Assembly (NCBI GenBank): GCA_017499595.2
Contig: CM039003.1
Span: forward strand, 2,666,001 to 2,730,000
Reading direction: 5' to 3'
Length of the DNA: 64,000 bases
Source: Psilocybe cubensis
Lineage: Eukaryota
Shown here: piece by piece, positions 4,572 through 52,401 of the stretch
Position numbering within the stretch: position 1 is the stretch's first letter
How the letters are laid out: each line of letters begins with the position of its first letter
Notes under the pieces: model-generated
The model's input: only the letters and a program-made list of their open reading frames with translations
What the model was told of the DNA's origin: nothing
The model's database searches: none
Program-made: the position numbers and the translations under genes

Positions 4572-6297
4572 CTATGAAGACACCCCTAGAATCTCCTTTG
4601 CCCACGCCGCATCACTCATAACCTGTCTCGCGAAGAATGGGCCAAGGACATCATGCAATTTAGCTATGAGCTCGCTGTCTCGCGTAGGATCCAGCGCGTC
4701 TGACATATCATCAGACGGCGGGGGCTGCAACACCCTCAGCGCATCCTACACGTACAAAAATCGCAAATTCTCAGCACAAAAACAAACAAACGAGAAGTTA
4801 CACGCAAACAAACGCACCATGACGGAATTCACAAGTCCCTGCGCCGGCCTGCCGCGCTCGCGCTCCTTCTCCCACTCCGCACCGACAACGCGCGCACCGC
4901 CACCTTCGACCAAGCCCTTCCTCACCGCCTCCTTCCCCACACCCACCAGCCCGCGAATCGCGCCCTCCCGCGTGCCCGTGCTCTTCCCTGGTGAAATCAG
5001 CGCGAGGAGGAGCGTCTTCATTATCCGCGGTGAGAGAGAGGGGTACGTGGTCGAGTGCTGCGTGAGCAGCTTCGCGAGCGTCTGCGAGGCGGAGGTGCGG
5101 AGGTGTGTGGTGTGTGTTTGTGGAAGCGAGGAGTGCAGGAGGATGGAGAGAATGGGCGGGAGAATTTGGTGCAGCTGTGCGAGACTTGTTTAGTTGGGGA
5201 TTTGCTGTAGATTATAACGAATACGCACGTAAGGCTCGACGAATAGTGTGCTGTTATCCAATATCGCGCCGATAACATCCAAAAGCACGTCCAACACCTT
5301 GCCCTCTCCTTCCGCTGGCGCATCCTCCTTGAGCACACCTACAACACCCTCACCAACCCATCGTACCAGGTAGGGCAGCAACGCCTGCAGCCCAGCGTCG
5401 TGCCGCAGACTCGCGAGCGCCGCAACGCGCTTCGCGTGGTCCGATGCACTAGGCGGGAGCAACGACGCCGTCAAACGCGCGTAATACAACTGCAGCTCGC
5501 GGGACAAGACCTGTTTCACGAGCTGCTGCTGCTGCTGCGCCGCACCCGCCTTCTTCGCGTCGCCGTTCACCGCCAGCATCGGTGCGCCTGCCGCAACACC
5601 TGCACCACCCACCGGTGGCTGCGCCGCGGCACCCACGCCGTTGGGCTTGAGGAGGTCCCCCTTCGCCAGCGGGTCCCCGTCGCTCTCGCGCGGCACCGCG
5701 GGCGGATTCTCGGGCACAAGCGGCTGCACACCCTCCACAGCCAGCCAATGCGCTGTCCAGCTCACACCCCTAGGCAGCGCGATCTTCTCCTCTCGCAGCA
5801 CACGGTCAAAATCGATCTCCTCGTCTTCGGGGAAGTACACAGGGCCCGCGGCGGGGATCTGTGGAAAGGGCAGAGCACGGCGGAAGCCGCTGGATGAAGA
5901 TGAGGATGTAGAGGGTGTGTGGCCGTAGAGAGGCTCGATGTTGAGTGTGCGGAGGGCGAGGTCGATGTCGGCGGTCGTGAGCAGGGTTCGTCGGCCGTGG
6001 CGCATGAAGCGGGCTGCTTCCTGTGGCGTTGTTGGGCATTGGAAGGGGGATCTGAGAATAATGGACGACGCACCTCAATAACCTGGTTAATTCTATACTC
6101 TACATCGCTCGCCAGCGCTGACGCGACGCTGTCTGAAATGACAATGTTCAACGAGTCCGCGATATCCTTTTAATTCGCATAAGCTCTGTCGAGGGTTAAA
6201 GCAAAAGCCAGCTTGCCTTTATCGTGTCGATTTTATACACCCCCGTCTGTGTCCCCTGGCTCGTGCGGACTTTTGGTTTTGGTGGAGGCGCTTGCAT
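4572..6297 (-). CDS. TAF6: TFIID/SAGA subunit TAF6
   Basis: Histone fold (VYKIDTIK|DIADSLNI...LASDVEYRINQVIE; MRHGRRTLLTTADIDLALRTLNIEPLYG), then HWLAVEGVQPLVPENP, LSRELQLYY and LASLRHDAGLQALLPY of the HEAT region. ATG at 6297, stop at 4572-4574, multi-exon. Confidence 0.93.
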
Positions 6298-17962: not shown

Positions 17963-18408
17963 AGAAAGAAAAAGTATGCACCCAGGTTTTGCAGTGTTGA
18001 GGAGGGATCACAGAACTGCTGAGAACTCCCGTTCTACGCGATGCATCAAATATCTGGGAAATGTCGAACAATAACAACATGTGACATTGACAACAATCAC
18101 CGTCTCGCATGGTTTTTTCATTGTAAATGAACGCAAGCGACAAATATAATATGAAGTGTGCACTTTTTTGGGCTTGATGGACTCCGAGTCGAGTCACATA
18201 GCTATCGGCACAGTCAATTTGAGCGGTGAATTGAAAAAAATGTGGGAAACCAGACCTTTCAGAACTGAGAACCTTAGATAGTTCATGTCAGACTCTTTGA
18301 TGGAGTATGTCGGTACATACAACTTGGAGAGAGCTCTGTTCGGCGTTGCTAAGAGAACCGCTTCAGGTGACCAACTTCATCAGTGAGAAACATCATCAAA
18401 AGTAACAT

Positions 18409-20075
18409 TTATTTGAAAGAATTTCTAAAGGCTGCTTCAAGTGGATTTTTTGGACTCTTACCCTTTCTGTGTCTTTTTTGCCATTGACCCGTCATCTTGA
18501 AAACATTCTCCTTCGCCTTGCCAGTATACTCCACAAGACTTTGCTCATCTGGATCTAGGTCAACAGCAATCTTAGGTTTCTTTGGAAAGTTCAAGTAGTC
18601 CCTGTGTGCGACGTTGAGATGGACGAGTTCCACTGCATCCGGGAGGAAATCGAGCATCGTCTCCCTCTCCCAGGATGTGCATTCCTCGCCACCCTTGATC
18701 TCCTGAATGAGAGTCATGATATTTGCTATGTCGGCATCTTGATCGTTCCACTGGACAATATCATGAGCCCTTGGGTTCCGAAGGATGGAGAATCGCCGTC
18801 GTAGCTTGAAATTATCAAGCCCACCCTCTTTCTCATACTCCTTGCCATAGAACATGCCTGACACGTCGCCATCGTACCTTTTAAATCTACCCCAATTTCC
18901 AGTGCAGTATTCTTGGGCCTGGACCAGCACACACGAGTTCAACGCGTACTTCCCAAGATCAAGATACCACTCGCTCCCAGAGAGTGTTTGAAAGTAGAAG
19001 CGATAATGATCATCGGGGTCCTGCCCCAACCTGTACTCTCCTTTTTTTTCTTTGCCATCAGGGCTGTCTTTGGAGAAAATATACCCGAGCCTGTCGGTAT
19101 CCTCAACATGCACTGACCCATTCACTATCCCAAAGTCAGAGATGGGCGAGTTTCCGTACGTCAGTCTGATCCTCCGCCGGCCTGTTTGCTGAAGGGTTTC
19201 GTCTTCATCTTCGTCGTCTGGTATTGCAGTCGTTGTATACATTGAAGAGAGCAGCGAGAGGCATACTGAAAGATATGTAACCAGGAGAAGTCCCTCGTTT
19301 GCAATGCGGCGTTGGAGCTTGTTACGCACAGCAGTGGTGATCGCAGTTGGCCACCAAGTATCGGTTTGTATGAAGCTCGTAAGCTTTTCGCCGAGTACAA
19401 TTGGCTTTGCACGAATGCCATCTGTGAAGGAAATGGGATATTTTCCGGAAGGATTGGTACTGGAAGGGTCAGTAGGTACCCCAGAAGATGCAGACGGGAT
19501 ATTTTCTGTGGAGACAGTCCCACTGGGATTAAGGATGGGGTGATATGGATGAAACGGATTTGGTGAATTGATAATTGGGTGCGTTAGGGCGGGGTGTGAG
19601 TTAAAATTGGTATCCTCTTTGAATTGCGCGACAAGGACGGCGAGGAATGGCCAGTACGACTCTATGTCAACACGATCAGTTTTGGATTTACCTAAAACCG
19701 CGCACATATGAAAATTATATAACAATTAGATGATATCTAGAGCTCACCGCAGTATTGGCGTTTATGTATCGGCCAGTCTCGCTGTTGGCATTCGCTCGAG
19801 CAATATACTACCTGTTTTCATGATTGGAATTGACGTTGAAAATCACGGTATGGCATGACATAGAGATCAGTCGAATCGATACCACACACCTCGGCGCACA
19901 ACTGACACCATCTCAATTCCGTTTCCCTCCATGTTTTACGACAAAGACAACAAGCCTCAAGTTTTGACAGGGGTAAGAAAATTCGAGGAGGTGATTTCGG
20001 TGTATAGTTCGAAACTGAGGGCCCCTGAGTTGGGGGACAAGCTGATCGTCTCGCCCATCGCGACTTAGAACGCAT
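18409..20075 (-). CDS. MYND-type zinc finger protein
   Basis: Spliced CCLCRK...WCQLCAE|VVYCSSECQQRDWPIHKRQYC fits the MYND consensus, followed by the long exon in ORF 18409..19725. The start codon is uncertain (20075 or 20129). Confidence 0.75.
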
Positions 20076-20132
20076 GTAGTTGCGGTTTCTTTGAAGAGTA
20101 AAAGGCCGATAGAAACAACCTTCTCGCATCAC

Positions 20133-20750
20133 AGGTAGTCACGTGTTTGAATTCCTAATCGGACGTTGAATCCGAAATCCCAAGTGGTCGAATCAGTTTA
20201 GCGCCCGTCCTCAACTCCTGTAGCGAGGAAAGCCTAAATTTCCATTGATCACTGAACGTCTTCCCTTACCTTGATAACACATCTCAGTGATACAAGTTAA
20301 CATGTTTGAATGCTACCTACAACTCCATTGCAATTCAGTTACTCAACACTGGCTACTACGGGTTGTATGTTTTTGTGGGTTTCTTGTACCGTGACGCTCC
20401 ATCCACATAAACATCCGATATACAGGATGGTCACGAGCCTACGAACCAGCGAACGGGGTTACTTGAAGCTGTAGGTAGTCACGTGTTTCAATCAGAGTGT
20501 TCCGATTCGGACGTTGAATCCGAAGAATTCCCAAGTTTTGGTTGAAAAAAGTTTAGCGCTCGTCGTTCGACCAATCCAAGCCTCATTAGTCGCTGATGGT
20601 CTCCCTGACATTGATACCCTTCTCAGAGATACAATTTAACTGGTTTGAATGCTACCGACAACTCCATTGAAATTCAGTTACTCAACAGTTACTACGGGTT
20701 GTATGTTTAGTTGCGGGTTTCTCGTACAGGGCTCCATCCACATGAATATC
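20133..20750. repeat. Imperfect direct repeat, ~280 bp x2 (20133-20415 and 20473-20750)
   Basis: Both copies contain aggtagtcacgtgttt, cggacgttgaatccgaa, gtttgaatgctacc, aactccattg-aattcagttactcaaca, actacgggttgtatgttt and gctccatccacat in the same order. Confidence 0.9.
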
Positions 20751-20770
20751 TAGTTTATTTTTGCCAACCT
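20751..20770. repeat. Left target-site duplication of the LINE
   Basis: TAGTTTATTTTTGCCAACCT, identical to 26172-26191. Confidence 0.95.
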
Positions 20771-23700
20771 TTCAGAAACCAGAGGTACTGGAGACTCCAC
20801 TGTCGGTCTACACTCCAATGAAGGTTCTGGATTTCACGGAGACAGATGCTATTTCAGCGCAGCCGTAAGGCCGCAAACACAAACGGAGGGTGAGGACCGC
20901 GACATAAGTCAATCCTCAAGAAACCCTGCCAGTGTAGGGCAATGCCCAGACAGGTCAACCACGGCCGCCTCCCCAAACCCGGGTGCCCACATAGAGCAAA
21001 GACCACCGCTACAAATGAGTAATGCTAATGCAAATGCAACACACCAGCCGCAGAGGCAACCAACCCAGAACCAAAATAATAGACGGACCACTCAACCTAG
21101 GGTCCAAAACCATAAGCTACACATGAAAACAACCAGAGGTAGCCTGAAAATCGCCTCCCTAAACATAAGAGGGGGCGGATCGAACAACACAAGGCATAAG
21201 TGGGGTCACGTTAACCAAATCATAAGAGACAACAAAATTGGAATCCTAGCGATTCAAGAAACTCACTTAAAGCCAGATGATGTAGATAGTCTCCACGAGC
21301 AATTCCCGGGCAGACTCCACATCTTAAACAACAGTGACCCTACCCAACCAAATGCTAAAGGGGTTGCCCTTATCCTAAACAAACAGCTAACCGCCTGGAA
21401 AGAGGCAAAAACCATAAAGGTAATACCAGGAAGGGCAACACTGATGACCCTCCCATGGAAAAATGACTCAATGATAAATATCCTGGCGGTCTATGCACCT
21501 AACCCATCAAATGAAAATGCAGAGTTCTGGGACAAACTAGTTACAGAATGGGATACACGCAACCTACCAATCCCTGACATAATGCTGGGAGACCTAAACA
21601 TGGTAGAAGAAGCTATAGATCGCCTTCCCATGCACCGAGACAACCACACGCAAACGGATGGCTTAGTAAACCTTAAAAGCTACTTCAGACTTATAGACGG
21701 ATGGCGCCGCACAAACACGAACACGATAGCCTTCACATATACGCAAGATGCTACACAAGCAAGATCACGCATAGATAGAATCTATGTATCCGAACAGATA
21801 TTTAACCATAGCAGAAACTGGGAAATAAACCATACCGCTATCAAAACGGACCACCAAATGGTGTCTATGGAGTTCACAAGCCCCGGCTCCCCCTTCATTG
21901 GAAAAGGCAGGTGGGCTATACCACTCTACCTCATAAAAGACAAGAAAGTCATTACAGAAATAAAAAAACTAGGCAGACAAGCACTTGAAAAGATTGACAC
22001 ACTCCCGGCTGACATAAGACAGGGACACGACACCCCCCAGAGCATTTTTAAAAAGCTGAAAATAGACATATTAAAGTTCACGCGTGAGTTCTCCAGACGT
22101 GAAACCCCTAAGATGGACGCAAGAATTGCAAAGCTAAAAGACGACCTAAAGCAAACATTGAATAACACACCAGGTAAACCACTAGAAATGATACAAGCGG
22201 ACTTAGCAGCCATAGAGGAAAAAATAAAACAACTCGAAACTCTCCGTCACACAAAAACGAGAGATAACATTGCAGTTAAAGGAGCGCTTGAGAGCGAGCG
22301 CATAGGAAAATTCTGGGTACAGGCAAATAAAGACCGACTGCCCCGGGATACACTACCACAACTCCAAACACTAGAGTCCACACCAGGAAACAAAATGTAT
22401 ACCAGAAGTACAAGAGAGATGACAAAAATTGCAACCACATACCACAACAACCTACAACGAGATGGAGGAGACACTAACCCCAGTAACGAGGACTATAATG
22501 ACGTCCTAAGCCACCTAAGACCAAAACTATCCAACAATGAAAAGGCAACCCTAGCGACCCTCATGAAAAAGGAAGAGATCAGCCAAGCCTGCAAAGACCT
22601 ACCCGATGGAAAGGCGGCGGGTATAGACGGCATCCCCCATGAACTGTGGAAGATGCTAATCGCACAACACGAAAATGACAAAAAACACAATAACCCTACC
22701 TTTGACGTTATTACACTACTCACCAAGGTTTTCAACGACATAGAAAAGCGAGGACTCGACAACGGGTCCGACTTCCCTAAAGGATGGATGTGCCCCATAT
22801 ATAAAAAAGGGGATAAAACCCACATTAGTAACTACAGACCCATCACGGTCCTAAACACAGACTATAAGATCTTCACAAGAATACTAACAACCCGCCTCTC
22901 CCGCGTAGCACCTACTCTGGTACATCCCGACCAAGCAGGATTTATGAAAGGAAGGTCAATAACAGACCAAACAGAACTAGCTCGACTCATGCTAAGCAAC
23001 TGTGAAGCAGAAGAACAGGATGGAGTCATCATCTGCTTAGACCAAGAGAAGGCATACGACAAAATACAACACAAATTTATATGGCTAACACTGGAGAAAC
23101 TAAATCTCCCGCAGCACTTTATAAATTCAGTAAGAACACTATATGAAAATGGAGAAACTGTAATCATTATAAATGGAGAAATAGGCGAACCGTACAAAAT
23201 AACCAGAGGAGTCCGCCAAGGAGACCCCCTCTCCTGCCTTATATTCAACTTAGCAATAGAGTCTCTAGCGCAACTACTCCGGGACTCACCTCTACAAGGA
23301 TTCAAAATCAAGGGAGAAACAGAAAGGTTGATTACAACCCTGTTTGCTGATGACACGACGGTCTACCTATGCAAAGACGATGACATACAAACTCTTTTTG
23401 GTGTCCTACAGAAATGGTGCAAAGTGTCGGGGGCAAAGTTCAATCAGAACAAGACAGTAATAATACCAGCGGGATCACCACAATACCGTAAGAATGTAAT
23501 AGACACCCGAAAACTTAAACCGTCCAACACCACACACATTGACCCAAGCATTAAAATAGCAAGAGACTCAGAACCAGTAAGACTCCTGGGAGCCTACATT
23601 GGAAACGACATTAAAAACCTGTCAGTGTGGACGCCTACACTTGAAAAAATCGATAAGCAACTTGCGAGATGGGGAAGAAGCCATCCAACCCAAGAAGGCC

Positions 23701-26171
23701 GCCGACTAATCATAAACATGGTCGTTGGGGGACTCACCCAATACAAGGCCCAAGTACAAAGTATGCCCAAAGAAGTAGCTGACCAGATTGAAAAGAAGAT
23801 CCACAAATTCTTCTGGGACGACAAATCCGCCACCGTAAATATTAACACAATACGCCTACCAATAAATGAGGGAGGCAGAAACCTACTAGATATAAAAGCG
23901 CGAAACGAAGCCATAGAGCTCATGAAACTCCGAAACTTTACAAAGCCCCCAAAAGATAGGCCGAGATGGGCTAAAGTAGCAGACCAAATCCTTGTCCTAA
24001 ACGCAAACCAGGCCTTTGACGTCCCCGATGTTGCAAAAGAAGACAACTACTTCCTGCAAAACTGGACAGCGAAACTACAAAGTAACCCTAACATACCAGA
24101 CAGCCTACGAGACATGCTAGCAACAGCAAGAAAGTACAATGTTGGAGTCCACGACGTGAACCCAGGCAAACAAATGAGGGAACAAATGCCAATCTGGCAC
24201 CACATAGGCTTCGACCCGAACAAAAGGTCGTACAGAACACACAAATGGGTAAGATGCCAGCAGCAAAACCACCATATATCGCTGACAGGCCAGATGGCGG
24301 CCTTTGCCCACCGAAATAACGGTAGAGGCCACCTGCGACGTAGAAACTGCAAATGTGCATTATGTAAAGAAGACAGAGCCGCCGGCTGCAACAACCCAGC
24401 ACTATGTCGCGAGGCAGCTGCAAAAGTATTGGACATCCTGCTCCCAAATTGGGACCCAAGGAAGGCAGAAGACATCCCCGGCTTATCAGCACAGGATGTG
24501 GAGACAAACAACCGGAACATAATGACAAACAAGCCAGTTATCTTCAATCCAAAAACTTCAACAGACGGAACACCTCTGTCCAACCTGAGAGTTTTCAGAA
24601 GTAAGCCGCCCATGCCGGAACCAGGAGACAGACAAGTACAAGCCTATCCCCCCGTATTCGAGGAGGAACCAGAACCAGAACCAGACCCGGAAGACAAACA
24701 AGTCATATACTTAGCCAGCACGTGTAAGAACACTAACACTGAGACGGCAACATCATCTGGAGTAGCCTGGTATGCAGGAAATAATGCAAAGAACTTCACC
24801 ATTAAAAGAACAGGCCCCACGCAGACAGCAAGACGCAGCATGCTAACCCTGCTCCAACTCATACTACGCGACGAGCAACATACCGTTAAACTTGACTTCA
24901 AATCAAAATCACCCCACCTGACAAAAATGCTCCATGAACAAATTCACCACCTAGAAGACTGTGGGTGGACAAAGGACCATGATGCAGACATTCTGCAAGA
25001 AATACTAAACCTTCTACGACAGAGGAAAGCTCAAACAACTTTCCAGACAATAACCGAGGACGAACCAGATGAGTGGACGACCCTCGAAGAGGCCCAAAAC
25101 CTGATCTCTCCTGCACACGGAGAAGTAAGAAATGACAGACCAGATGAACCACCAAGGGAACAACCTACCACACAACACCAAATTGGGATTAAGATACAGG
25201 CAATGTCCCAGTCAACCGCATACAAAGCTATAATGAGAAGAGAAAAGGAAAAAGTAGAACCAAGGAGACAAACCCTAATCAACCTAGACAAGACACGATA
25301 CGCTGCAGAAGAAATAGGAAGATGTCTGCCAACAGATAAACAGATCTGGGCGGCCATAAAGAAAAGAGACATCTCAGTCCGAGGAAGAGCCTTCCTCTGG
25401 AAAACCATGCACGATGCCTACAAAGTGGGCGAATACTGGGAACGGATCCCAGGCTACGAAATCAGAGGCTACTGCCACGTCTGCCAAACAACAGACACAA
25501 TGGAACACATACTCACCGAGTGCAGAGCGACAGGCCAAGAAGCAGTATGGCAAGCAGCCGAAGAACTGTGGAGCCTCCGTAAACTCGACTGGAAAAAACC
25601 AAAAATTGGACACATACTTGGGTGCGGCCTCGCAAACTTCCATCCGGAAAAGAAAAGAACCACATTAACGGGAGCGAACAGGCTCTACGCGATACTGATA
25701 TCTGAGAGCGCACACCTCATCTGGAAAACGAGATGCAAGTGGAAAATTGAACACGGAGCACGAGACGACAAAATAATTAGTGACGACGGAATCCGACAAA
25801 AATGGATACAAACCATAAACAGACGACTCAAAATCGACTGCCTCTCAACAAATGAGAGACGCTACGGAAAAAGAGCACTCAACCCCTCACTGGTTCAAAA
25901 AACCTGGTGGGGGGTGCTACTCAACCAGGGAGACCTGGGTGATGACTGGCTCACAGCCGCCGGGGTTTTAGTGGGTATAGAGGGGCGTCCGTCTGGACGC
26001 AACCGTTGAAAACGGTTCCCCAGTCCTACACTGCTCTCACACAGAGCGTGCTAAGACATTTCCCCGGGGTTAAACGTCACTACGTGTGACGTAAAAAAAG
26101 CCGATCTTGGAGGTCAACCTTGTTGATTGTCCAGGATCCTAAAGGCTCCACCAAAAAAAAAAAAAAAAAAA
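20771..26171 (+). mobile_element. Non-LTR retrotransposon (L1-like LINE), ORF1 absent or 5'-truncated
   Basis: A-rich strand, long EN-RT ORF, poly(A) at 26153-26171, flanked by identical 20-bp TAGTTTATTTTTGCCAACCT at 20751-20770 and 26172-26191. Confidence 0.95.
21015..26009 (+). CDS. LINE ORF2 polyprotein: APE endonuclease, reverse transcriptase, Cys-rich segment, degenerate RNase H, C-terminal zf-RVT-like CCHC
   Basis: EN motifs SLNIRG, LAIQETH, VYAPN, GDLN, SRIDRIY, TDH. RT motifs YRPITVLNTDYKI, QAGF, LDQEKAYD, GVRQGDPLS, LFADD. C-terminal CHVC...HILTEC. Confidence 0.95.
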   Translation: MSNANANATHQPQRQPTQNQNNRRTTQPRVQNHKLHMKTTRGSLKIASLNIRGGGSNNTRHKWGHVNQIIRDNKIGILAIQETHLKPDDVDSLHEQFPGRLHILNNSDPTQPNAKGVALILNKQLTAWKEAKTIKVIPGRATLMTLPWKNDSMINILAVYAPNPSNENAEFWDKLVTEWDTRNLPIPDIMLGDLNMVEEAIDRLPMHRDNHTQTDGLVNLKSYFRLIDGWRRTNTNTIAFTYTQDATQARSRIDRIYVSEQIFNHSRNWEINHTAIKTDHQMVSMEFTSPGSPFIGKGRWAIPLYLIKDKKVITEIKKLGRQALEKIDTLPADIRQGHDTPQSIFKKLKIDILKFTREFSRRETPKMDARIAKLKDDLKQTLNNTPGKPLEMIQADLAAIEEKIKQLETLRHTKTRDNIAVKGALESERIGKFWVQANKDRLPRDTLPQLQTLESTPGNKMYTRSTREMTKIATTYHNNLQRDGGDTNPSNEDYNDVLSHLRPKLSNNEKATLATLMKKEEISQACKDLPDGKAAGIDGIPHELWKMLIAQHENDKKHNNPTFDVITLLTKVFNDIEKRGLDNGSDFPKGWMCPIYKKGDKTHISNYRPITVLNTDYKIFTRILTTRLSRVAPTLVHPDQAGFMKGRSITDQTELARLMLSNCEAEEQDGVIICLDQEKAYDKIQHKFIWLTLEKLNLPQHFINSVRTLYENGETVIIINGEIGEPYKITRGVRQGDPLSCLIFNLAIESLAQLLRDSPLQGFKIKGETERLITTLFADDTTVYLCKDDDIQTLFGVLQKWCKVSGAKFNQNKTVIIPAGSPQYRKNVIDTRKLKPSNTTHIDPSIKIARDSEPVRLLGAYIGNDIKNLSVWTPTLEKIDKQLARWGRSHPTQEGRRLIINMVVGGLTQYKAQVQSMPKEVADQIEKKIHKFFWDDKSATVNINTIRLPINEGGRNLLDIKARNEAIELMKLRNFTKPPKDRPRWAKVADQILVLNANQAFDVPDVAKEDNYFLQNWTAKLQSNPNIPDSLRDMLATARKYNVGVHDVNPGKQMREQMPIWHHIGFDPNKRSYRTHKWVRCQQQNHHISLTGQMAAFAHRNNGRGHLRRRNCKCALCKEDRAAGCNNPALCREAAAKVLDILLPNWDPRKAEDIPGLSAQDVETNNRNIMTNKPVIFNPKTSTDGTPLSNLRVFRSKPPMPEPGDRQVQAYPPVFEEEPEPEPDPEDKQVIYLASTCKNTNTETATSSGVAWYAGNNAKNFTIKRTGPTQTARRSMLTLLQLILRDEQHTVKLDFKSKSPHLTKMLHEQIHHLEDCGWTKDHDADILQEILNLLRQRKAQTTFQTITEDEPDEWTTLEEAQNLISPAHGEVRNDRPDEPPREQPTTQHQIGIKIQAMSQSTAYKAIMRREKEKVEPRRQTLINLDKTRYAAEEIGRCLPTDKQIWAAIKKRDISVRGRAFLWKTMHDAYKVGEYWERIPGYEIRGYCHVCQTTDTMEHILTECRATGQEAVWQAAEELWSLRKLDWKKPKIGHILGCGLANFHPEKKRTTLTGANRLYAILISESAHLIWKTRCKWKIEHGARDDKIISDDGIRQKWIQTINRRLKIDCLSTNERRYGKRALNPSLVQKTWWGVLLNQGDLGDDWLTAAGVLVGIEGRPSGRNR

Positions 26172-26191
26172 TAGTTTATTTTTGCCAACCT
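26172..26191. repeat. Right target-site duplication of the LINE
   Basis: Directly follows the poly(A) tail; identical to 20751-20770. Confidence 0.95.
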
Positions 26192-26436
26192 ATTCTTGAA
26201 CATACCATATATGTGCACTGTATGGCTCTGTAGCTTTTCTAAGCGTCGTATCTCTCCTATTGCTTCAAGAACAAAACTTTAATGATCACATTCAACCAAT
26301 TTCTGAAGCAGGTCTCTTGTGACGTCTATATACTCAGTGTTTCTACAAAACATTGACAATTATGGAAGCCCTTTGGAATTACAGACAAGTTGTCAGGTAA
26401 AAATGAAATTGTGATTGGAATTGTACAGATGTGTAC

Positions 26437-28198
26437 CTATCTTTGTTCCTTTGGAATGCCGTCAACGTAGCGCATCGCTGCTGAACCTGAGGTTTGAGAT
26501 AAGTGCTCTCCTACAAGTACGGTCTTTGCCGTCCCTGAGCCGACTGTTAAAGAGGGAATACGGGTGCATGACGGAGGAGCAACATAATTCTTGGCACAAT
26601 GTACAAATTTGTTGCAAACAAATTGGCGGTGTTTTATTGAGTTACCACCACAAATGAGCCAACGGTAGCTCTCTGGAACCGACGGATATAATACAAGATC
26701 TTTGATATTTGGTGTGTAAGATATTACCATGTTCAGAATATCTCTCTAAGAATGATATACATGAGCGTATTCTGTGATTGATATTGACAATCACTTACCA
26801 CAGCGTTTTCTATAGGAGGGAAAGCCCCATCGTAGCCACCTTTGTCGTCAGGCGAACTAAAAATGCTCATCGCCAAGTGCTGCAGGGCAGTAAGCTTTGA
26901 GATGCAATCGTAGTTGTGAAAACCAATACACCAAAGCCCTTCGTAGGCCGGTTTGATCTGTAAATCATGCAATGACTGAACATGATTGTCCAGGCATCCA
27001 TCATAAAACACCACTGCCATTTCATCGGATAAATTGCTGTACCCAAGTCTATCCGGCTCCAGATACAATTTCTTCAATCCTGAATAGGATGATAGATAGT
27101 TGAGAAAGCAATGGGAAACATGATCAACACATAATGCCGTGAGATGGATTTCAGCAGTGGTAAAATATTTCCAGATGACGTCAAGTCGCGATTCATCCAG
27201 CTTAGTGAGGCTTAGCGAGGTCAGACATGCTAGATGGAGCATGAAGGGTTCGGTAAGGATGGGAATGTACGATGCCAACTTCAGGTGACGAAGACGCAGA
27301 GGCGGAATGGAAATTGGAAAATATTTGAGAAGATTGGTGAACCTCGCTGAATCATTGGTTATATCTCCTTTGTCAGGGTTGATAGCAGTGATCAGTTCGA
27401 GTGAACTGAGATTAGGGTTACAAACCACAGCTTTAGCAACATTATCCAGTATTTCGTCCTCCCATTGTGGCGAACACTTCTCTGTCAGAATTATCAAATC
27501 TTGTAGACCTCTTAAAGAGTCCAGCTCGAGTGGAATCTCAAATTCGATGAAATGTATTTGAAGGCAGCTCAAAGATGGAAGGTACTTCAAAGAGCTCATC
27601 ACAATTTGATGCACTTGTTTCCCGTCATGTAAATTAGGTACCCACCTGCGGAGGGTGATATGTCACTCTAGAAATCAAAGTCAATAAAATATACTCACTG
27701 TACTGCACGAACTCCTTGAAGCGAGGTAATTGCATCAAGTAAGTGGTTTATTATCCTGTCTTTGGCAGTGGAAACCTCGAAGGGATCTTTCTCAAATAGA
27801 TCAATGGAATTGTTTGCCTTTAGAAGTGCGATTGGACCAAAGGATCGAGGCGCATATCCAGGCGATAGAGTTCTGATGGTCAGTGCCCGGGCGGCATAAC
27901 ATGCGGGGTGAGTTGACCTCGCCAAAGCTTCGAGTTTCTCAACCCCCTGCTGATAATTGTCGCCGTGGATACAAAGTGTAACCGACCTGAAGATATGCGG
28001 CTGTAGAAGGTCTGCCATCGTATTACAAGTTAAGCGAAGTTGTTTGACATCCTCGATTTCCAGCTGGCAAAACCTTTGATTACACCCTGGCCATCCGAGT
28101 CAATAGACATTCAACGCACATACCTTGTCGCCGATTGCCTCAATCAGATCTGGTGGAAGGGTAGAGACAATTGAATCCTTTGGGGACGTAGTTTTCAT
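26437..28198 (-). CDS. F-box-like/LRR-like protein (family B, copy 1), ~4 exons
   Basis: MKTTSPKDSIVSTLPPDLIEAIGDK|LEIEDVKQLRLTCNTMADLL..., then the LRR-like exon 26733..27614 and the last exon ..NYVAPPSCTRIPSLTVG..; collinear with the paralog at 40315-42140. Confidence 0.75.
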
Positions 28199-33299: not shown

Positions 33300-36235
33300 T
33301 TATCGTGATCGTGGTGCCGTTTTTGTTCCTTCTTCACTGGACATTTGTGCTGGGGATGGCCTCGCGCCCGTCGCCTTCTTCCCTCCTCCTCCACTTGTTG
33401 CAGGCTTTCCTGCACCCATGGTTGGAGGTAACTGCGGATCAGCCAATTTATCCCACTCATCCAACAATCGCTGCCCAACAGTCGGCTCAACCTCTGTCCC
33501 GTCCCGCGAAACCTTGATCTCCCGGTCGTGGTTCCATGGGTTGCGCAGATGCTTCGTGCGATAGAACGGCAGCCTGTCAGTGCAGATCCATTCCACAGCA
33601 AAGCTGTCGCCCCAAGCCTCTTCACCGCGCTGTTTACCACCACCACCACCCGCACCTGTATCTGGGTCACCTTCCGCCACCTCTCCGCTGTCGGCACCTT
33701 CCGGGGGTCCACGGGCTTCTGAATACCCCGCTCCAAACGCGTAATCCACTTCCTCTACCCTCTCCTCAACCTCTTCCACAGCATCCAGCGAAGACCCTCC
33801 AGCTTTTCCACTCGATTTATCCTGCCCATCTGATCCTGAGCCAGACCCAGAACTCGAGCCCGATGACCCCTGTTGGCCACGCAGAGCCCTCAAAGGCGCA
33901 TACCGGTCCAGCTCAAACGCCTCCTCCTGGTGTGGGCGCCGGGGCTGATCCAAGCTGTACATGGTGTCCAACGTTGTCACTGTCGGAAGCTTGTACCCCT
34001 CGCCGAGAAGAGGAGGTGCTGAGTGCCGGAGGTGGCTCTGAGGGTTTCTGAGTGGTCTCGTAGGTGGCAGGCCTGGAGTGACTCCTTCCACTTGCAGAGG
34101 GGATTCGTCCACGAACCGGCCGTCGCTGGGAGAGATGATGTTCGTGACTGGGGTCGTAGGAAGGTGTGGCGTCGTCATTGCACGAATAGGGGGCTGCTGC
34201 GACGGACGTGATGCCCATGAGATACGCGTTTCGCCTCGGAGAACAGGTCCTGACATTCTGTTTGAGAAAAAGCGCAAGTGCAATTCGTGAGTAACATCCA
34301 GCAAAACGACATAACCTGAACCAAAAGAGTGCGCACCTGGCGTGCCCATAGAACTCGCCACTTTTGTTGACACTAAATATCAGGTGAACCTCCTTGCTGG
34401 TCCTGAACGCTTGATCCAAAATCTCCTCATTATGCCTCTGAGTCGCCCAAACACCCCGTTGCACGCTAAGATCCAAATCTTCCTGAGATATAAAACCCAA
34501 AGTAAACGTCTGCTTTCATAAATCGGAAAAAATATTGAAAACGCACTTGAGTCAAAGATTTGAGGATAAAATAGCGTTTTGGAAAGTATCGCGCAAGGAA
34601 ACTGGATGTGGTCGAAGCGTACGATCCAGAGCTACTGGAATGTTTGGTATGGATTGGCCTTCCCTCGCTTTCTTTATCCGCCATAGAGATGCTCGACACT
34701 GCGCTCGCCAGTCGTTCCGACACGCTTGCAGGAGACGTAGACATGCCATCTGAGATCGAAGCCGATAAATCTGACGGATCGCTCGCCCACTCTGGCGCTT
34801 TGCCCTTCTGGTCCCGAATCCAATTGAGATGCATGTTCCTCCCCCGCTGTAGACCCACTCCTGCCTTCAGATCATCATCTTTCTTCCTCTCACGACACAC
34901 AAGTCGAGGGCATCGCGGGTCGTTGGAGCGGAGCGGAACACCATTGAACCGTGCGATGGCTTGATGTAAGTAAGCTTCAGTCTCGTAATTGATGAAGGCG
35001 CAGCTGGAGCGAGAAATCAGGAAAATGGAGAGCACGCCGGTCTTCGCATCCGCCCCGTCTGCCCGTGGCTCAGGTGGCTGATTGAAGAAACGCCATAACT
35101 CATCGTGGCTTGCATCCGATGGTACGTTGCCGGCCCACATCACCCATTCCGACCGATGAGCTGGTGGGTTTGGGTGGTATGGGCGTCGTACACGTGGTTT
35201 GTCGCTGGCCGGATGGCGGCCACTTCCCGAAGAAACGCTCTGAGCAGCGCTGGGGTAACTCTGTTGCATGGGTGGCCCAGCTCCAGAAGGTCCCGGTGAA
35301 TCTGATGGTGTGTGAGAGTCGGGTATATGTTGTGACGGTGAAAATGGGAAATGTAGTGGAGGCGAATGAGTCGGAATGGAAGATGGAACCTGTCCACCAT
35401 GGGCAACTTCTGCTCCGGGGTGTCCGACTTGCGGATACGCAACAGAATAATGGGTGGTATATCCACCGGCATCGAATTGTTGTGGAGATTGAGGAGGGTG
35501 TGGAAGAAAGACCCATGTACCCTGTGGCTCTCCCTCATTTGGTGGTGTATAATGTTGTCCGAATGGGCTAGCGGGATATTGGCCCCCATACATGGGCGAT
35601 GAAGGAAAACCTTGAGGGTGATATGAATAAGTAGGTGCAGGATATGGTAAAGACTGAAATGGCCCGGATGTTATATAAGGAGTGTTCTGGCCAGAAGATG
35701 AAGGTGGATGTGAAGATGAAGGTGAAGAAGAAGACGGCGTGTTTATCCGATGAGGGGGATACATAGACGAAGTACGCGTCCCCGGGAAAGGATGAGAAAC
35801 GTGTGCTTGAGGTTGGAGCATGCTTGGGAAATTGGCGGCGTGTATGGTGTTTATGTTGCTACCATCTGGCATCGTTGGGTGATACGAGTGCGGATAATAA
35901 GGAGATGGTGGATGCCCCATGGTCATATGGCCCGGCTGAGAAGGCATCGTGTATTGTCCAGCGTAGCCAGGCCTTTGACCATAGGGCACTGGCGGGGAAT
36001 AAACCATCGGCGATCCCTGGAACGCGGAGGGGGGATGATTAGGGACATTCTCTGAAGGACTCGGTGAGGATATGACATAGCCGTGGGATGACGGGGCTTG
36101 CGATGTATGTTGAGCGCTCAACCGGTGGCTATTCCCAGACTGCGGACGGGAGCGTCGTCGATTACTTGGTGTTCCGGCCTTTGAACGATCAGGTTTTGAA
36201 GATTCTGACATGCGCTCACTGGCATCACCATGCAT
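33300..36235 (-). CDS. RRM + YTH-domain RNA-binding protein (YT521-B-like); the 5' end may extend further upstream
   Basis: RRM (VMWAGNVPSDASHDELWRFF..SSCAFINYE). YTH motifs RYFILKSL, GVWATQRHNEEILDQAF, VHLIFSVNKSGEFYGHARM and FAVEWI..LPFYRTKHLRNPWNHDREIKVSRDGTEVEP. Confidence 0.9.
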
Positions 36236-38811
36236 AGAATCGTGTGTAGCGCCGGGTTCCCTATCTATTCGATTGAGGACGTTTGGATGTGCAGTAGGTG
36301 TTGCTGGCCCGCTGCTGTCATGAAAAGCTGGATCAAAATCGCCAGAGATATCGAGTAAGTTCGGCTAGGACGTAGAAATTACTGGAAAAGGTACGTACTT
36401 GCACTTGGATACTCCTGGGGGGAATCAGAATTTGAAATTGAATCTAAAGGTGAACGTAAAAGTAAGTCATGACAGAATAAGGACAGAAAGGATAAAATAG
36501 AAAAAGATCAAAGAGAAACGGCCACAACTTCTCTCGGTCTGGACGCGAACACGCAAGTTGACCTTTTTTCGAGCACTCGACCTGATGCACGTGACTGATT
36601 TTATACCATGTGACACGCACCTCGCGATTGGATGCTAGAAAAATAACCTGGCGTACCAGTCCTCACGCTCAACTCGTCCAGCTGGGCTTCGACCATTACG
36701 AGTGAGTAATCCTGAGATCAGCTTGCAATACACGGGCATGATTGTCACTACAAACAGGTGAATGGACATACAAAATGAACATGACTTACAGAAACTGCAA
36801 ACAAAGCTGCGTACCGATTTAATGAGATAACCCAGGTGAGTGTTGTTACTCTTAGCTGCTGCAGGTATTTCTTAATATGTTTTGAATCTGAAGCTGGGGA
36901 ACGTTGAAGGCGGATGTGGGTTCACCAACTATCTTTATGCATTTCAGCAGTGTGAGAAATGTGACGTCAGGGCCATTGCACTGCGAAAACGGGGGTTGCT
37001 TTTATTTTATAACGGAAGCTTGAGTTAGATAATGCGATTCAATAGCGATCAGAGAAGACTCTTGCCTGGTATGGCATGTTTTTATGATATCCACTCCTCT
37101 CCACAGGCTCATGGGTGACCTTGGGGCCCGCGCCGACGGTTACGCGAAGCCTGATGTGTACATTTGGGGGACCCTATGCGCGTCATAGCGTCCCTTTTAT
37201 GCGAGCCGAGCTAGAAGACAGCCGCAGAAGAGCGCAGCGCAGGTCTGGTAAGAAGATTATCCTTGGACGCGCTTGTCCTTGTCGTCATCTAACAAGAGCT
37301 ACCCAGAAATATCAACCCTGTTCCCGGCATCCAGTGCCCCGGGAATAGGTCGATCACCAGAGATGGAAACTGGGGCGAGTTTCGCAGCCGGATAAGCTAC
37401 CGTCGCAAACGTGGGGGTGCTAAAGTGTGGTCGTGGTAGGGAAACAAGCGTCTGAGCATGTTGTGAGCACTGCCAACTGTCCATGAAAAGGGACGATCAC
37501 CATTTTCAATTCTTCCGACCTGTCCAGATTGTCAATGACGTCATCTGTACCGATATGGGCAATGACGATCGTTGACGACATAAATATCATTCTGCTTCAA
37601 TATGAAATTGCACGATGTGAGCGAGTAGAGTCCAGTAGGCGCCAGTGTAGCTGGAACGATGTCCAAAATCATTGGAATCAAGGAAGAGAGCCTAATCCTC
37701 CCTATTGTATAGCAACTATGGTCAGTCGTTCAGAAATTGAACTTGACCAACGTTTTTACTAACCATACTGTGAGAATGTTTTGCAGCCGCTACGTCACGT
37801 TAAATAAGCTTCTGCTCAAAAAGAGTCATGTCCGAGGACAAACTCTCAATACAAACCGCGGCACCAACACAATTAGTGGCGGTTTTCAATCAGATCATGT
37901 ACAAATGTTCTCGTACATGTTCAACGCAATGATATAATAGTCATGAGATGTTCACGTATAGGCAGTTGGCGATGATGCATACCCCGAAATTAGGATTGTA
38001 ATCGCTCGGTGGATAACGCACATAAGAGCCACGCGCCATGATGAGATCATCCGTGCTTCATTAACTATTCAATAGGTCCTGCGCAATGGATGACATTCAA
38101 TGATGCTTCAACAGGCAACTGCATAAGAGTATGTGCCGCAAGCGGCCGTTAGCATTAATATGGTTTTATGCATAGAGTACAGATCTTTTAAAAAGACATC
38201 GCTGTGTCATACCATATGAGTAGTATATCTACTCGACAATGAACCCCAGAAATGACTTTCACAATTGTGCCTGGAAGCCTCAAGGCATGTCTTCGTTTTT
38301 GGAATATGCTCCAACGGGTGGCATAATGCAAGGAAATGATGGACATACTCCAAGAAGCCCAATCGCCCGCAATCAAAATGGAAGCTCGAAATATTTAACG
38401 AGTACTTTTAATAACATAGACAGGCCTGCGACAGCTTGCATCGTCCCCTAATATCAATCGTGAGAACTATCATGTGATCATCGCTGAGTGGGACTTGCAA
38501 ACATATACTAGGAGGGCCTACATCATCGATGAAGCAGGGACGTACTAGATGTCATAGAGTATTTTCTCTGTTAGTATGATGTTGTTGAGTTGAATACTAC
38601 GCAAGCCCCACAGGTAAATATCGTTTTATCACTCCCAACGGTCTAGACCCTGATATCACGTGGAGCGCACCCAACACAAAAATAAGCTGAACGGTGTTTT
38701 ATACACCGTCGACAACTGCTTTGCAGAAAAAATACCGGAATGACAGCAAGGCTGTGCATCTCACAGCGGTGCAGTCAGTAAAAAGGTGGCCATGCTTATA
38801 GTAGTGCATCT

Positions 38812-50263: not shown

Positions 50264-52401
50264 ATGGGTGCTGCAGGTGTTGAAGGCCAATTTGTAGGCC
50301 CTATGCCTATCGAAGATATGCTGAAGTTGTTGCCAGTGGTGGACATGAAGACCAAATTCGTACCGAGTTTCGAGCATGATTTCTTCTCTGCGTTGGATAC
50401 ACAGGACGAGGAGAAGGAGACGCGTGATTCATTCGTAAGTCGCTCTGTCTATCTCCTTCATTCTGACTGCTTCACTTTTGCTTGAAATATATGAAGATTC
50501 AACGTCTTGAAGAGAGCCAAGCTATTTCAGGATTCCAGCTGGTTAACTCGTCGACATATTCCTATGCAGATTCAAAGCCTTTGGTGCCTGACGTGGTGGC
50601 ATATAAACAGAGCGTAGCAGTCCCGCAAAACAGCATCGACTACATGGAGCTGGAGTTGATTTTCGAGTTTAGAACCCAGCAAGACAAAGCGGACCCTTTT
50701 GATCATAGAGCCACCAAGGATAGCATTGACTCGGAAAGCCAGTTGGATTCAACCGAATCACAACATCCTTTCGAGGCTAGAGGCGACGCGAACAAGGTGT
50801 GCCCAAGGCGGATATACAACTATGCGAAAATGTGGCTCGGAGCTCAACACCGCACGCATTGCTACATCGTGGATATTGGGGACCCCTACGCACGGATTAT
50901 TCGTTTTGACCGTGCGGGTGCGCTCGTCTCCGAACAGATTAATTATCGGATTGATGGACATTTACTTCTGGAATTTCTCTGGCGACACTCTCAAACCACT
51001 GACGAAGCTCGTGGGCACGATACAACGGTCAGAATGGTTCCTCTAGACGACGAGAAAGTCAAGCTGGCACAGAGTAAGCTATACCAATGGAGACCACAAG
51101 ATCATAACGTCAAGGTTCTCGAAATGGATATTCCAACAAGTGCTGGTGGGGTGGCACATACAGTTTATGTTTGGGGGGCTTTATCTGAACCACACTCACT
51201 GATTGGAAGGGCGACGCGAGGGTACCCGGCGTGGGACCCCAGTCGTCCCGAGGGGGAGGATATTGTCTTTTTGAAGGATTCCTGGAGGTCTTGTGCGTCA
51301 GGTATGGAAAAGGAAACCGATATACTTCAGACTCTGAACAAACATGGTGTCCGAAATGTACCCCAATACCTCTACGGCGACGACATACCTGGCCATAGGA
51401 CAATCACCCAGGATTATACCGAAGCGAAATGGAATGCAGGTGGAGTCGCAAAGGATGTTATGAAGAGAGTGCACATTAGATTCATTGAAGACGTTGTCGG
51501 TCTTCCTCTCTGGGAATTCGAGAACCCAAGGCAGTTGGTCGTGGCTATACATGATGCTATAATTGGTAAGCATCGAGTGATTTTCGTGATTCGATGCTCA
51601 TTCAATTATCCTGCGGCAGCTCACCAAGATGCGTACCAGATCTGCGGGATTCTACACAGAGACGTGAGCTTAGGAAATATCCTGCGGAGGAGAGATGGTA
51701 AAGGCGGAGTGCTGAATGACTGGGACCTGGCAGCGCGCTACAACATTGAAACACATACTCCTCTCAAGGACAAGAGGCAGCAATCTCGGTCGGTGAGTGA
51801 CTTGATTTGCTCCGGTGATGACTTGCGGCTAAAAATGTACTATTACCAGGGAACGTGGCAGTTCATGTCAATAGGACTTCTCGAGGACCCGTCAAAGGTT
51901 CACCACTGCATCGACGACGCCGAGTCTTTTATTTGGGCCCTTCTTTACTGCACTATGCGTTACATGAAGACCAGCATTGTGCCTATAAGGTTGCAAAATA
52001 CCATGGAAGATCTATTTGACCAAGTTAACCGAGGCTTACCAGGCGAATTAAACACAGGCGGGGCTGGCAAACAATCTTTCGTCACCGGCAATCGTTTTAG
52101 CTTCGGAGGCTTCGTTGTTAACGACAATGAACCACTGACAAGCCTGATAGCTAAACTCTTCAAAAGTATTATTTTAGAGTTTCGCATTCGTCTTGCAGGG
52201 TCTCACATCCACATCGACGAACTTATAGAAGACCACCAATTTACTCGTGAGCAGGCTCAAGAAACCTTTATCCGCGAAACCAATGAGCTAGGAGTGCAGC
52301 TTTATTTACTTATGGAGTCAACTTTGAAGGATTCCCTCAGCAAGGACTGGCCCAAAAGTAATCCAGGTTGGCATGATCACCTCCGTCACCAAAATTCGTA
52401 A
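50264..52401 (+). CDS. Fungal-type protein kinase (FunK1/Pkinase_fungal family)
   Basis: FVGPMP, IIRFDRAG, LIGRATRGY, VFLKDSWR, ILHRDVSLGNIL, LNDWDLA, GTWQFMSI, DDAESFIW; short introns. Confidence 0.85.

Follow-up and report, generated by a model that had tools for sequence, protein, structure and literature searches.

A recently mobile fungal LINE with a retained, apparently inactive RNase H domain

The element and its open reading frame

We analysed a stretch of 64,000 nucleotides from Psilocybe cubensis (GenBank assembly GCA_017499595.2, contig CM039003.1, positions 2,666,001 to 2,730,000 of the forward strand), referred to below as the window, which contains a long interspersed nuclear element (LINE), a retrotransposon without long terminal repeats (non-LTR). 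The element encodes a protein with a segment homologous to type-1 RNase H in which every catalytic position has been replaced, and the data presented here suggest that the element moved recently in this state. The LINE body occupies 20771-26171 on the plus strand (5401 bp) and carries a single open reading frame (ORF). It is bounded by a perfect target-site duplication (TSD) of 20 bp, the 5′ copy at 20751-20770 being identical to the 3′ copy at 26172-26191, and it ends in a poly(A) tail of 19 A (26153-26171, plus strand). The open frame, P0001 (20754-26009, plus strand), runs for 1751 codons from stop to stop, and from its first in-frame Met to the stop it encodes 1664 amino acids (21015-26009, plus strand). 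Only 244 nt separate the 5′ end of the element (20771) from this Met (21015), and no separate ORF1 was found upstream of it. Residue numbers given below count from stop to stop, so that the RNase H segment, residues 1313-1453, corresponds to residues 1226-1366 counted from the Met; these are the numbers used in an initial annotation of this DNA, whose quoted peptides we also found in the ORF.

The domains of P0001, all on the plus strand, begin with an endonuclease of the apurinic type (APE) at residues 134-350 (21153-21803; Pfam PF03372 Exo_endo_phos, E 4.1e-10), followed by a reverse transcriptase (RT) domain at residues 684-922 (22803-23519; PF00078 RVT_1, E 7.1e-38), in which both the FADD motif, at residue 864, and the LDQEKAYD motif are present. 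A Cys-rich motif, read from the sequence, lies at residues 1199-1218 (24348-24407); two Cys of the 471-residue segment never vary in either A1 or A2, and other positions with Cys or His are nearly invariant. The RNase H-like domain itself (residues 1313-1453; 24690-25112), defined by a family profile and a predicted fold, stands between this motif and a C-terminal CCHC zinc-binding region at residues 1530-1594 (25341-25535; PF13966 zf-RVT, E 2.6e-4). The zf-RVT match is weak in P0001 (22 bits, under the gathering score of 27.5) and equally weak in most relatives. The initial annotation had described an ORF without stops, a perfect TSD and intact endonuclease and RT, all of which we confirmed, the last two through the Pfam domains and RT motifs, and its placement of the domain between RT and the CCHC finger also stands, with the addition of the Cys-rich motif on the upstream side. 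No further copy of the LINE was found within the window.

The RNase H-like segment

The segment is not readily recognised by general profiles. A Pfam scan of P0001 returned no RNase_H (PF00075) match at E <= 1, and a phmmer search of PDB with the segment alone gave six matches (E 0.2-1.4), none of them an RNase H. Homology was instead established through intermediate sequences. Residues 552-1751 of the ORF were searched against 1.84 billion representative proteins, yielding 74,563 hits at E <= 1e-3, and the best full-length relatives aligned with the entire query in a single stretch at 30-41% identity. Among 149 listed relatives, 113 match residues 1150-1620, and we scored only the 72 that cover both flanks of the domain. 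In 22 of 30 relatives scanned, a strong PF00075 match lies between RVT_1 and zf-RVT (E 1e-14 to 6e-30); it is missing in the other eight. Throughout, a domain is called dead if at least two of five catalytic residues are lost, most dead sequences having lost three to five, and intact if all five are present, which divides the 73 aligned sequences into 43 intact and 30 dead ones, P0001 included.

In two independent MAFFT alignments, the segment matches the TDGS, QSNQ.GE, DS and KGH.G..GNE.AD motifs of the relatives with no large gaps. A profile built from the 43 intact relatives recognised the P0001 segment on its own with 60.0 bits (E 1.6e-20 for one sequence), in a gapless alignment over profile positions 4-124, and the same profile detected all 30 dead domains at E <= 1e-10. 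The P0001 domain is roughly 80% divergent from every relative. The segment is thus a genuine full-length homologue of type-1 RNase H, as shown by intermediate sequences that hold the enzyme at the same position, and this supports the description of a full-length pseudo-RNase H given in the initial annotation.

Two-metal catalysis by RNase H needs the D-E-D-D carboxylates. By both MAFFT alignments with the 72 relatives and by the profile hidden Markov model, P0001 keeps none of the five D-E-D-H-D positions. On the plus strand, A1321 (24714-16) replaces the first catalytic Asp, the TDGS motif reading LAST; M1363 (24840-42) stands in the place of the catalytic Glu (N..GE to A..SM), where one MAFFT run puts S1362 instead; K1385 (24906-08) replaces the second Asp (TDS to SKS), D1436 (25059-61) the catalytic His (KGH to TED) and Q1448 (25095-97) the last Asp (EAD to EAQ). 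The manual alignment behind the initial annotation, by which every acidic catalytic position is replaced, is therefore confirmed, and as the profile aligns without gaps, no other register supplies the carboxylates. The window holds no second RNase H: run against its 532 six-frame ORFs of 50 or more amino acids, the family profile is significant in a single region, and Pfam finds none in P0001. Given the established requirement for the carboxylates, the domain would be unable to bind the catalytic metals or to cut RNA, and to judge from its residues it is an RNase H homologue and not an active member of the family.

It could be argued that the domain is still a nuclease, or binds hybrids in the canonical groove, by means of the EDEPDE loop (residues 1435-1440) or D1381. 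The predicted fold is intact, acidic residues abound in the loop found in place of KGHSG, and an Asp occupies the position of the His. However, none of the four metal ligands is left, the central Asp position holds a lysine, and the conserved Asn and Gln that contact the substrate are also lost, while D1381 lies four residues before the catalytic site, between two strand residues that would face the core. The net charge of the P0001 domain is -4, and the weak difference in mean net charge between dead and intact domains (+1.0 versus -1.3, p 0.03) is uninformative on nucleic-acid binding. We consider residual activity of this kind very unlikely.

Structure prediction agrees with the profile searches. 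An AlphaFold model of residues 1150-1620, computed with the 73-row alignment, has a mean predicted local distance difference test (pLDDT) score of 88.6 and a predicted template modelling (pTM) score of 0.84, and ten-residue blocks within the domain score between 89 and 97. Among PDB structures, Foldseek ranks E. coli RNase HI first (E 4e-7, with a template modelling score on the target of 0.74) and also places human RNase H1 among the best matches of the predicted domain. In VIA-align, human RNase H1 (6vrd_A) gives Z 13.5 with 2.3 Å of root-mean-square deviation (rmsd) over 136 of 149 residues, the match comprising model residues 164-304, that is ORF residues 1313-1453 or window positions 24690-25112. 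Because intact homologues among the aligned sequences might have imposed the fold, we repeated the prediction with the 29 dead relatives only. The control model has a pLDDT of 83.4, with domain blocks of 82-95, and matches 6vrd_A with Z 12.6 and rmsd 2.6 Å over 140 aligned residues. Both predicted structures, analysed with DSSP, contain a five-stranded sheet and helices in the unchanged order b1-b2-b3-aA-b4-aB-aD-b5-aE, and both match E. coli RNase HI with Z of about 12-13 over the whole chain. The AlphaFold check proposed with the initial annotation thus predicts an RNase H fold, also from dead sequences alone.

Mobility, other copies and surroundings

Four public sequencing runs (X6, X9, X11 and X12, of which X11 and X12 are raw reads) were compared with the window over 18400-28100. 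In X9, from another strain, a contig runs from 20762 straight to 26184 and contains the 20 bp of the duplication only once; this exact empty site means that the insertion is recent and polymorphic, which supports the recent transposition that had been suspected from the structure of the element. X9 also contains a second copy with other flanks, which covers 20769-26142, has the same 5′ end and shows 39 differences. In X6 the element is present in pieces with eight differences. No variant reads were seen in the element in X11 and X12, where it is covered about half as deeply as the right flank, and from this read depth the element family is low-copy. Among the 21 listed differences between the X9 copy and the window copy (39 in total), 12 are synonymous and 9, among them a stop at W632, non-synonymous, whereas neutral transitions predict about 2.1 non-synonymous changes per synonymous one (binomial p 0.017 among the listed differences). 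This excess of synonymous differences suggests that part of the divergence between the copies arose under selection on an active lineage. The X9 copy is itself disabled by a stop at W632 (G>A at window position 22648), while the window copy is open.

The RNase H segment (24690-25112) is spanned by the X9 copy and by the X6 pieces, and only one of the listed differences falls within it, a synonymous one at H1409; the 18 unlisted differences of the 39 in the X9 copy could add more. Since copies at different loci share the segment, it was transposition that produced copies bearing the dead domain. This bears on the possibility that the loss is specific to one copy, i.e., that the insertion studied here is a dead pseudogene copy derived from an active element with intact RNase H. 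The low copy number of the family and the W632 stop in the X9 copy would fit such a history, as would the results of searches with residues 1270-1480, in which proteins near in length gave no match (404 candidates in the database) and shorter proteins (546 candidates) gave only the window's own 763-residue protein, so that no close family member with this region was found in that database. Against it, the window copy retains 1751 open codons and a perfect TSD, the X6 pieces and the X9 copy at a different locus span the dead segment with only one listed difference, a synonymous one, and five site replacements together with about 80% divergence of the domain are too much to have accumulated since a recent insertion. 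We regard copy-specific decay as scarcely credible.

Two 34-nt stretches of the element, at 22921-22954 (the RT motif around YRPITVLNTDYK) and at 25715-25748 (the C-terminal motif around SESAHLIWK), recur elsewhere. Both match other, deeper contigs and reads in X6, X9, X11 and X12 whose sequence beyond the match is unrelated, and because of these other contexts further related LINE families seem to be present in the same genomes.

Immediately before the insertion site lie two tandem units of about 280 bp (20133-20415 and 20473-20750), which are 74% identical, reach as far as the TSD and belong to the flank, outside the element. In X11 and X12, many reads leave the window sequence at 20116 (70 and 46 loose ends, respectively). 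The left flank at 18400-20019 is covered about three times as deeply as the right flank in these two runs, with mixed alleles and small deletions, and is probably a multi-copy gene or repeat. It includes an ORF of 438 amino acids on the minus strand (18409-19725), which, like the flanking ORFs at 26733-27662 and 27695-28099 (both minus strand), has no Pfam match. Farther away, ORF pieces at 5193-6074 (minus strand), 33303-36364 (minus strand) and 50467-52398 (plus strand) correspond to TAF6, YTH/RRM_YTH1 and a 'fungal protein kinase' (PF17667), respectively, which indicates a fungal host and ordinary nuclear DNA around the insertion.

Recurrent loss, retention of the fold and comparison with known systems

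The relatives of P0001 show that a dead domain is no peculiarity of this element. We inferred a tree with IQ-TREE (LG+G4, quick search) for those 53 sequences whose coverage sufficed, on 889 columns from which those of the RNase H domain had been excluded. The dead and intact states map onto it with 14 state changes, of which at least nine are forced by branches with an SH-aLRT (Shimodaira-Hasegawa-like approximate likelihood ratio test) support of at least 95, and P0001 itself is sister to the intact P0013 with a support of 99. Dead and intact sequences are similarly scattered in a FastTree tree. The counts are undirected, and we read the changes as losses because the regain of five catalytic residues is implausible; on these trees, conversion to a predicted dead RNase H has arisen repeatedly in this LINE group. 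Outside the domain, pairs of dead sequences are 38.0% identical and pairs of intact ones 38.4%, FADD survives in 21 of the 23 dead sequences and in 25 of the 30 intact ones, and LDQEKAYD in all 53, including the 23 dead ones. These values indicate that the dead relatives are not generally decayed proteins.

The domain has nevertheless never been discarded. Deletion was found in none of the 73 aligned sequences and thus in none of the 30 dead ones, and the domain measures 136-138 residues in intact and 125-161 residues (mean 138) in dead sequences. A non-catalytic patch comprising E1401, G1404, R1422, R1424 and T1428 (24954-25037, plus strand) is kept in both groups, the frequencies in the 30 dead and 43 intact sequences being 97% and 98% for E1401, 87% and 86% for R1422, 97% and 95% for R1424, and 83% and 93% for T1428. 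The hydrophobic core, S1386 and G1404 are likewise kept at near-equal frequency. In contrast, the active-site positions and the substrate-contact positions adjoining them are all lost in the dead group (N and Q of QSNQ.GE, N1410 and the KGH loop), and the suggestion in the initial annotation that the domain still binds RNA:DNA hybrids is consequently unsupported. As deletions are absent, length and core are kept and the E/R/R/T patch is conserved, we infer a scaffold role for the dead domain, in which the patch residues would make putative contacts.

Taken together, we favour the explanation that this is an intact, recently moved fungal LINE with a dead but homologous RNase H, the fold of which is kept as a scaffold, and that the same conversion has recurred among its relatives; we assign this a rough probability of 0.65. 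Several observations weigh against it. The ratio of identity in the domain to identity in its flanks falls from 1.04 in intact pairs to 0.61 in mixed and 0.50 in dead-dead pairs, and dead domains are clearly relaxed, evolving at about double the rate of the remaining protein. Profile scores grade from 131 to 29 bits without a break, a picture that resembles progressive decay, and in pairs of dead sisters the domain is about as conserved as neighbouring segments and no better, the short linkers beside it being too noisy for a neutral yardstick (identity 0.06-0.74). The H1409 change is the only listed inter-copy difference that the segment has to offer. Furthermore, the dead relatives are predicted proteins of only putative activity, and 77 of the 149 listed relatives miss the region and were left out of the dead/intact scoring.

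Much of this would be expected under simple decay, according to which the activity is dispensable and the segment drifts without any function, persisting since the frame must reach the C-terminal domain and in-frame deletions are rare. The residues at the catalytic positions, which differ even between dead sisters, point in the same direction. Yet none of the dead lineages has deleted or much shortened the domain despite at least nine independent inactivations, some of them old, the hydrophobic core and E1401, R1422, R1424 and T1428 are as frequent as in intact domains, and AlphaFold recovers the fold at a pLDDT of about 90 from dead sequences alone. We therefore consider drift without function unlikely, although far from negligible. 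The pattern is better described as a relaxed but persistent structural constraint, under which the dead domain would still be subject to selection.

As the element is intact and moved recently with a dead domain, its retrotransposition would not depend on RNase H activity of its own. Host RNase H1 or H2 would presumably remove the RNA from the cDNA:RNA hybrid, or the RT would displace it, a situation that may be compared with LINEs that have no RNase H. Within the ORF2 protein the fold would be load-bearing, placed between the RT and Cys-rich region on one side and the C-terminal zinc-binding domain on the other, and the dead domain would be a pseudo-enzyme, a connection-like architectural module rather than a nuclease. 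It is tempting to go further and speculate that ORF2 cannot do without the RNase H fold but can do without its catalysis, which was given up on at least nine separate occasions and perhaps even lost with advantage; we hold this stronger version to be tentative and would bet somewhat against it. A possible gain from the loss would be that the template RNA stays paired with the cDNA until second-strand synthesis, or that exposed cDNA is avoided. If the stronger version is true, the dead elements would be natural separation-of-function mutants that reveal a role of RNase H beyond the cutting of RNA.

The loss of RNase H domains from some non-LTR retrotransposon lineages is already known. What is new here is a LINE that looks active although the one RNase H fold it has is dead, together with the recurrence of the same conversion among relatives that have never deleted the domain; in full-text literature, the coverage of which left out most subscription papers, we found no account of a non-LTR element retaining a dead RNase H. 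Live and dead pairs of close relatives offer a testable contrast for the role of the element's RNase H in target-primed reverse transcription. In addition, a call of 'RNase H absent' that is based on Pfam may hide a kept fold, and annotation pipelines would miss dead domains, since PF00075 matched none of the eight dead relatives scanned while the family profile detects all 30 dead domains.

Among the closest known systems are the elements of the Tad1 / I group. An RNase H with the D-E-D-H/R-D signature is listed for the I group (including Tad1), plant L1, Proto1 and Dualen (PMC4640811), and a fungal Tad-like element carries endonuclease, RT and RNase H in ORF2, with ORF1 as a frame of its own (PMC4427930). 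Our element shares domain order, position and homology with the Tad1 / I group, namely APE endonuclease, RT and a C-terminal RNase H. It differs in that all five catalytic residues are replaced, whereas the canonical D-E-D-H-D is present in 43 of the 73 aligned sequences, and in that it has one ORF and no ORF1, unlike the two-ORF element of PMC4427930.

The initial annotation had called the element L1-like, a label that is doubtful given that its relatives have the APE-RT-RNase H layout reported for the Tad1 / I group. To our knowledge, the L1 clade outside plants has no H-type RNase H. A candidate for the C-terminal CCHC expected of the L1 clade is the weak zf-RVT match described above (22 bits against a cut-off of 27.5), and the H-type RNase H in the relatives points away from L1, going by the published classification (PMC4640811). 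Human L1 is instructive as a functional parallel. Its ORF2p has no RNase H domain and retrotransposes without RNase H activity of its own; after the thumb it has a helical 'wrist' and a C-terminal domain with no RNase H fold, whereas the element described here keeps the whole fold. In the model for human L1, host RNase H2 is recruited through PCNA (PMC10830420).

The initial annotation had also likened the domain to the retroviral connection domain, and its interpretation as a whole is partly supported. The likeness, the nearest analogy among known systems, holds in that the retroviral connection (tether) domain and the plant Tat gRNH are likewise RNase H folds without DEDD that serve as structural modules in an RT polyprotein; there, DEDD degenerated after the gain of a second RNase H (PMC4408406). 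It fails in that a second, active RNase H adjoins the tether and the Tat gRNH, whereas this element has none. This LINE group is further set apart by the conversion having occurred many times within it.

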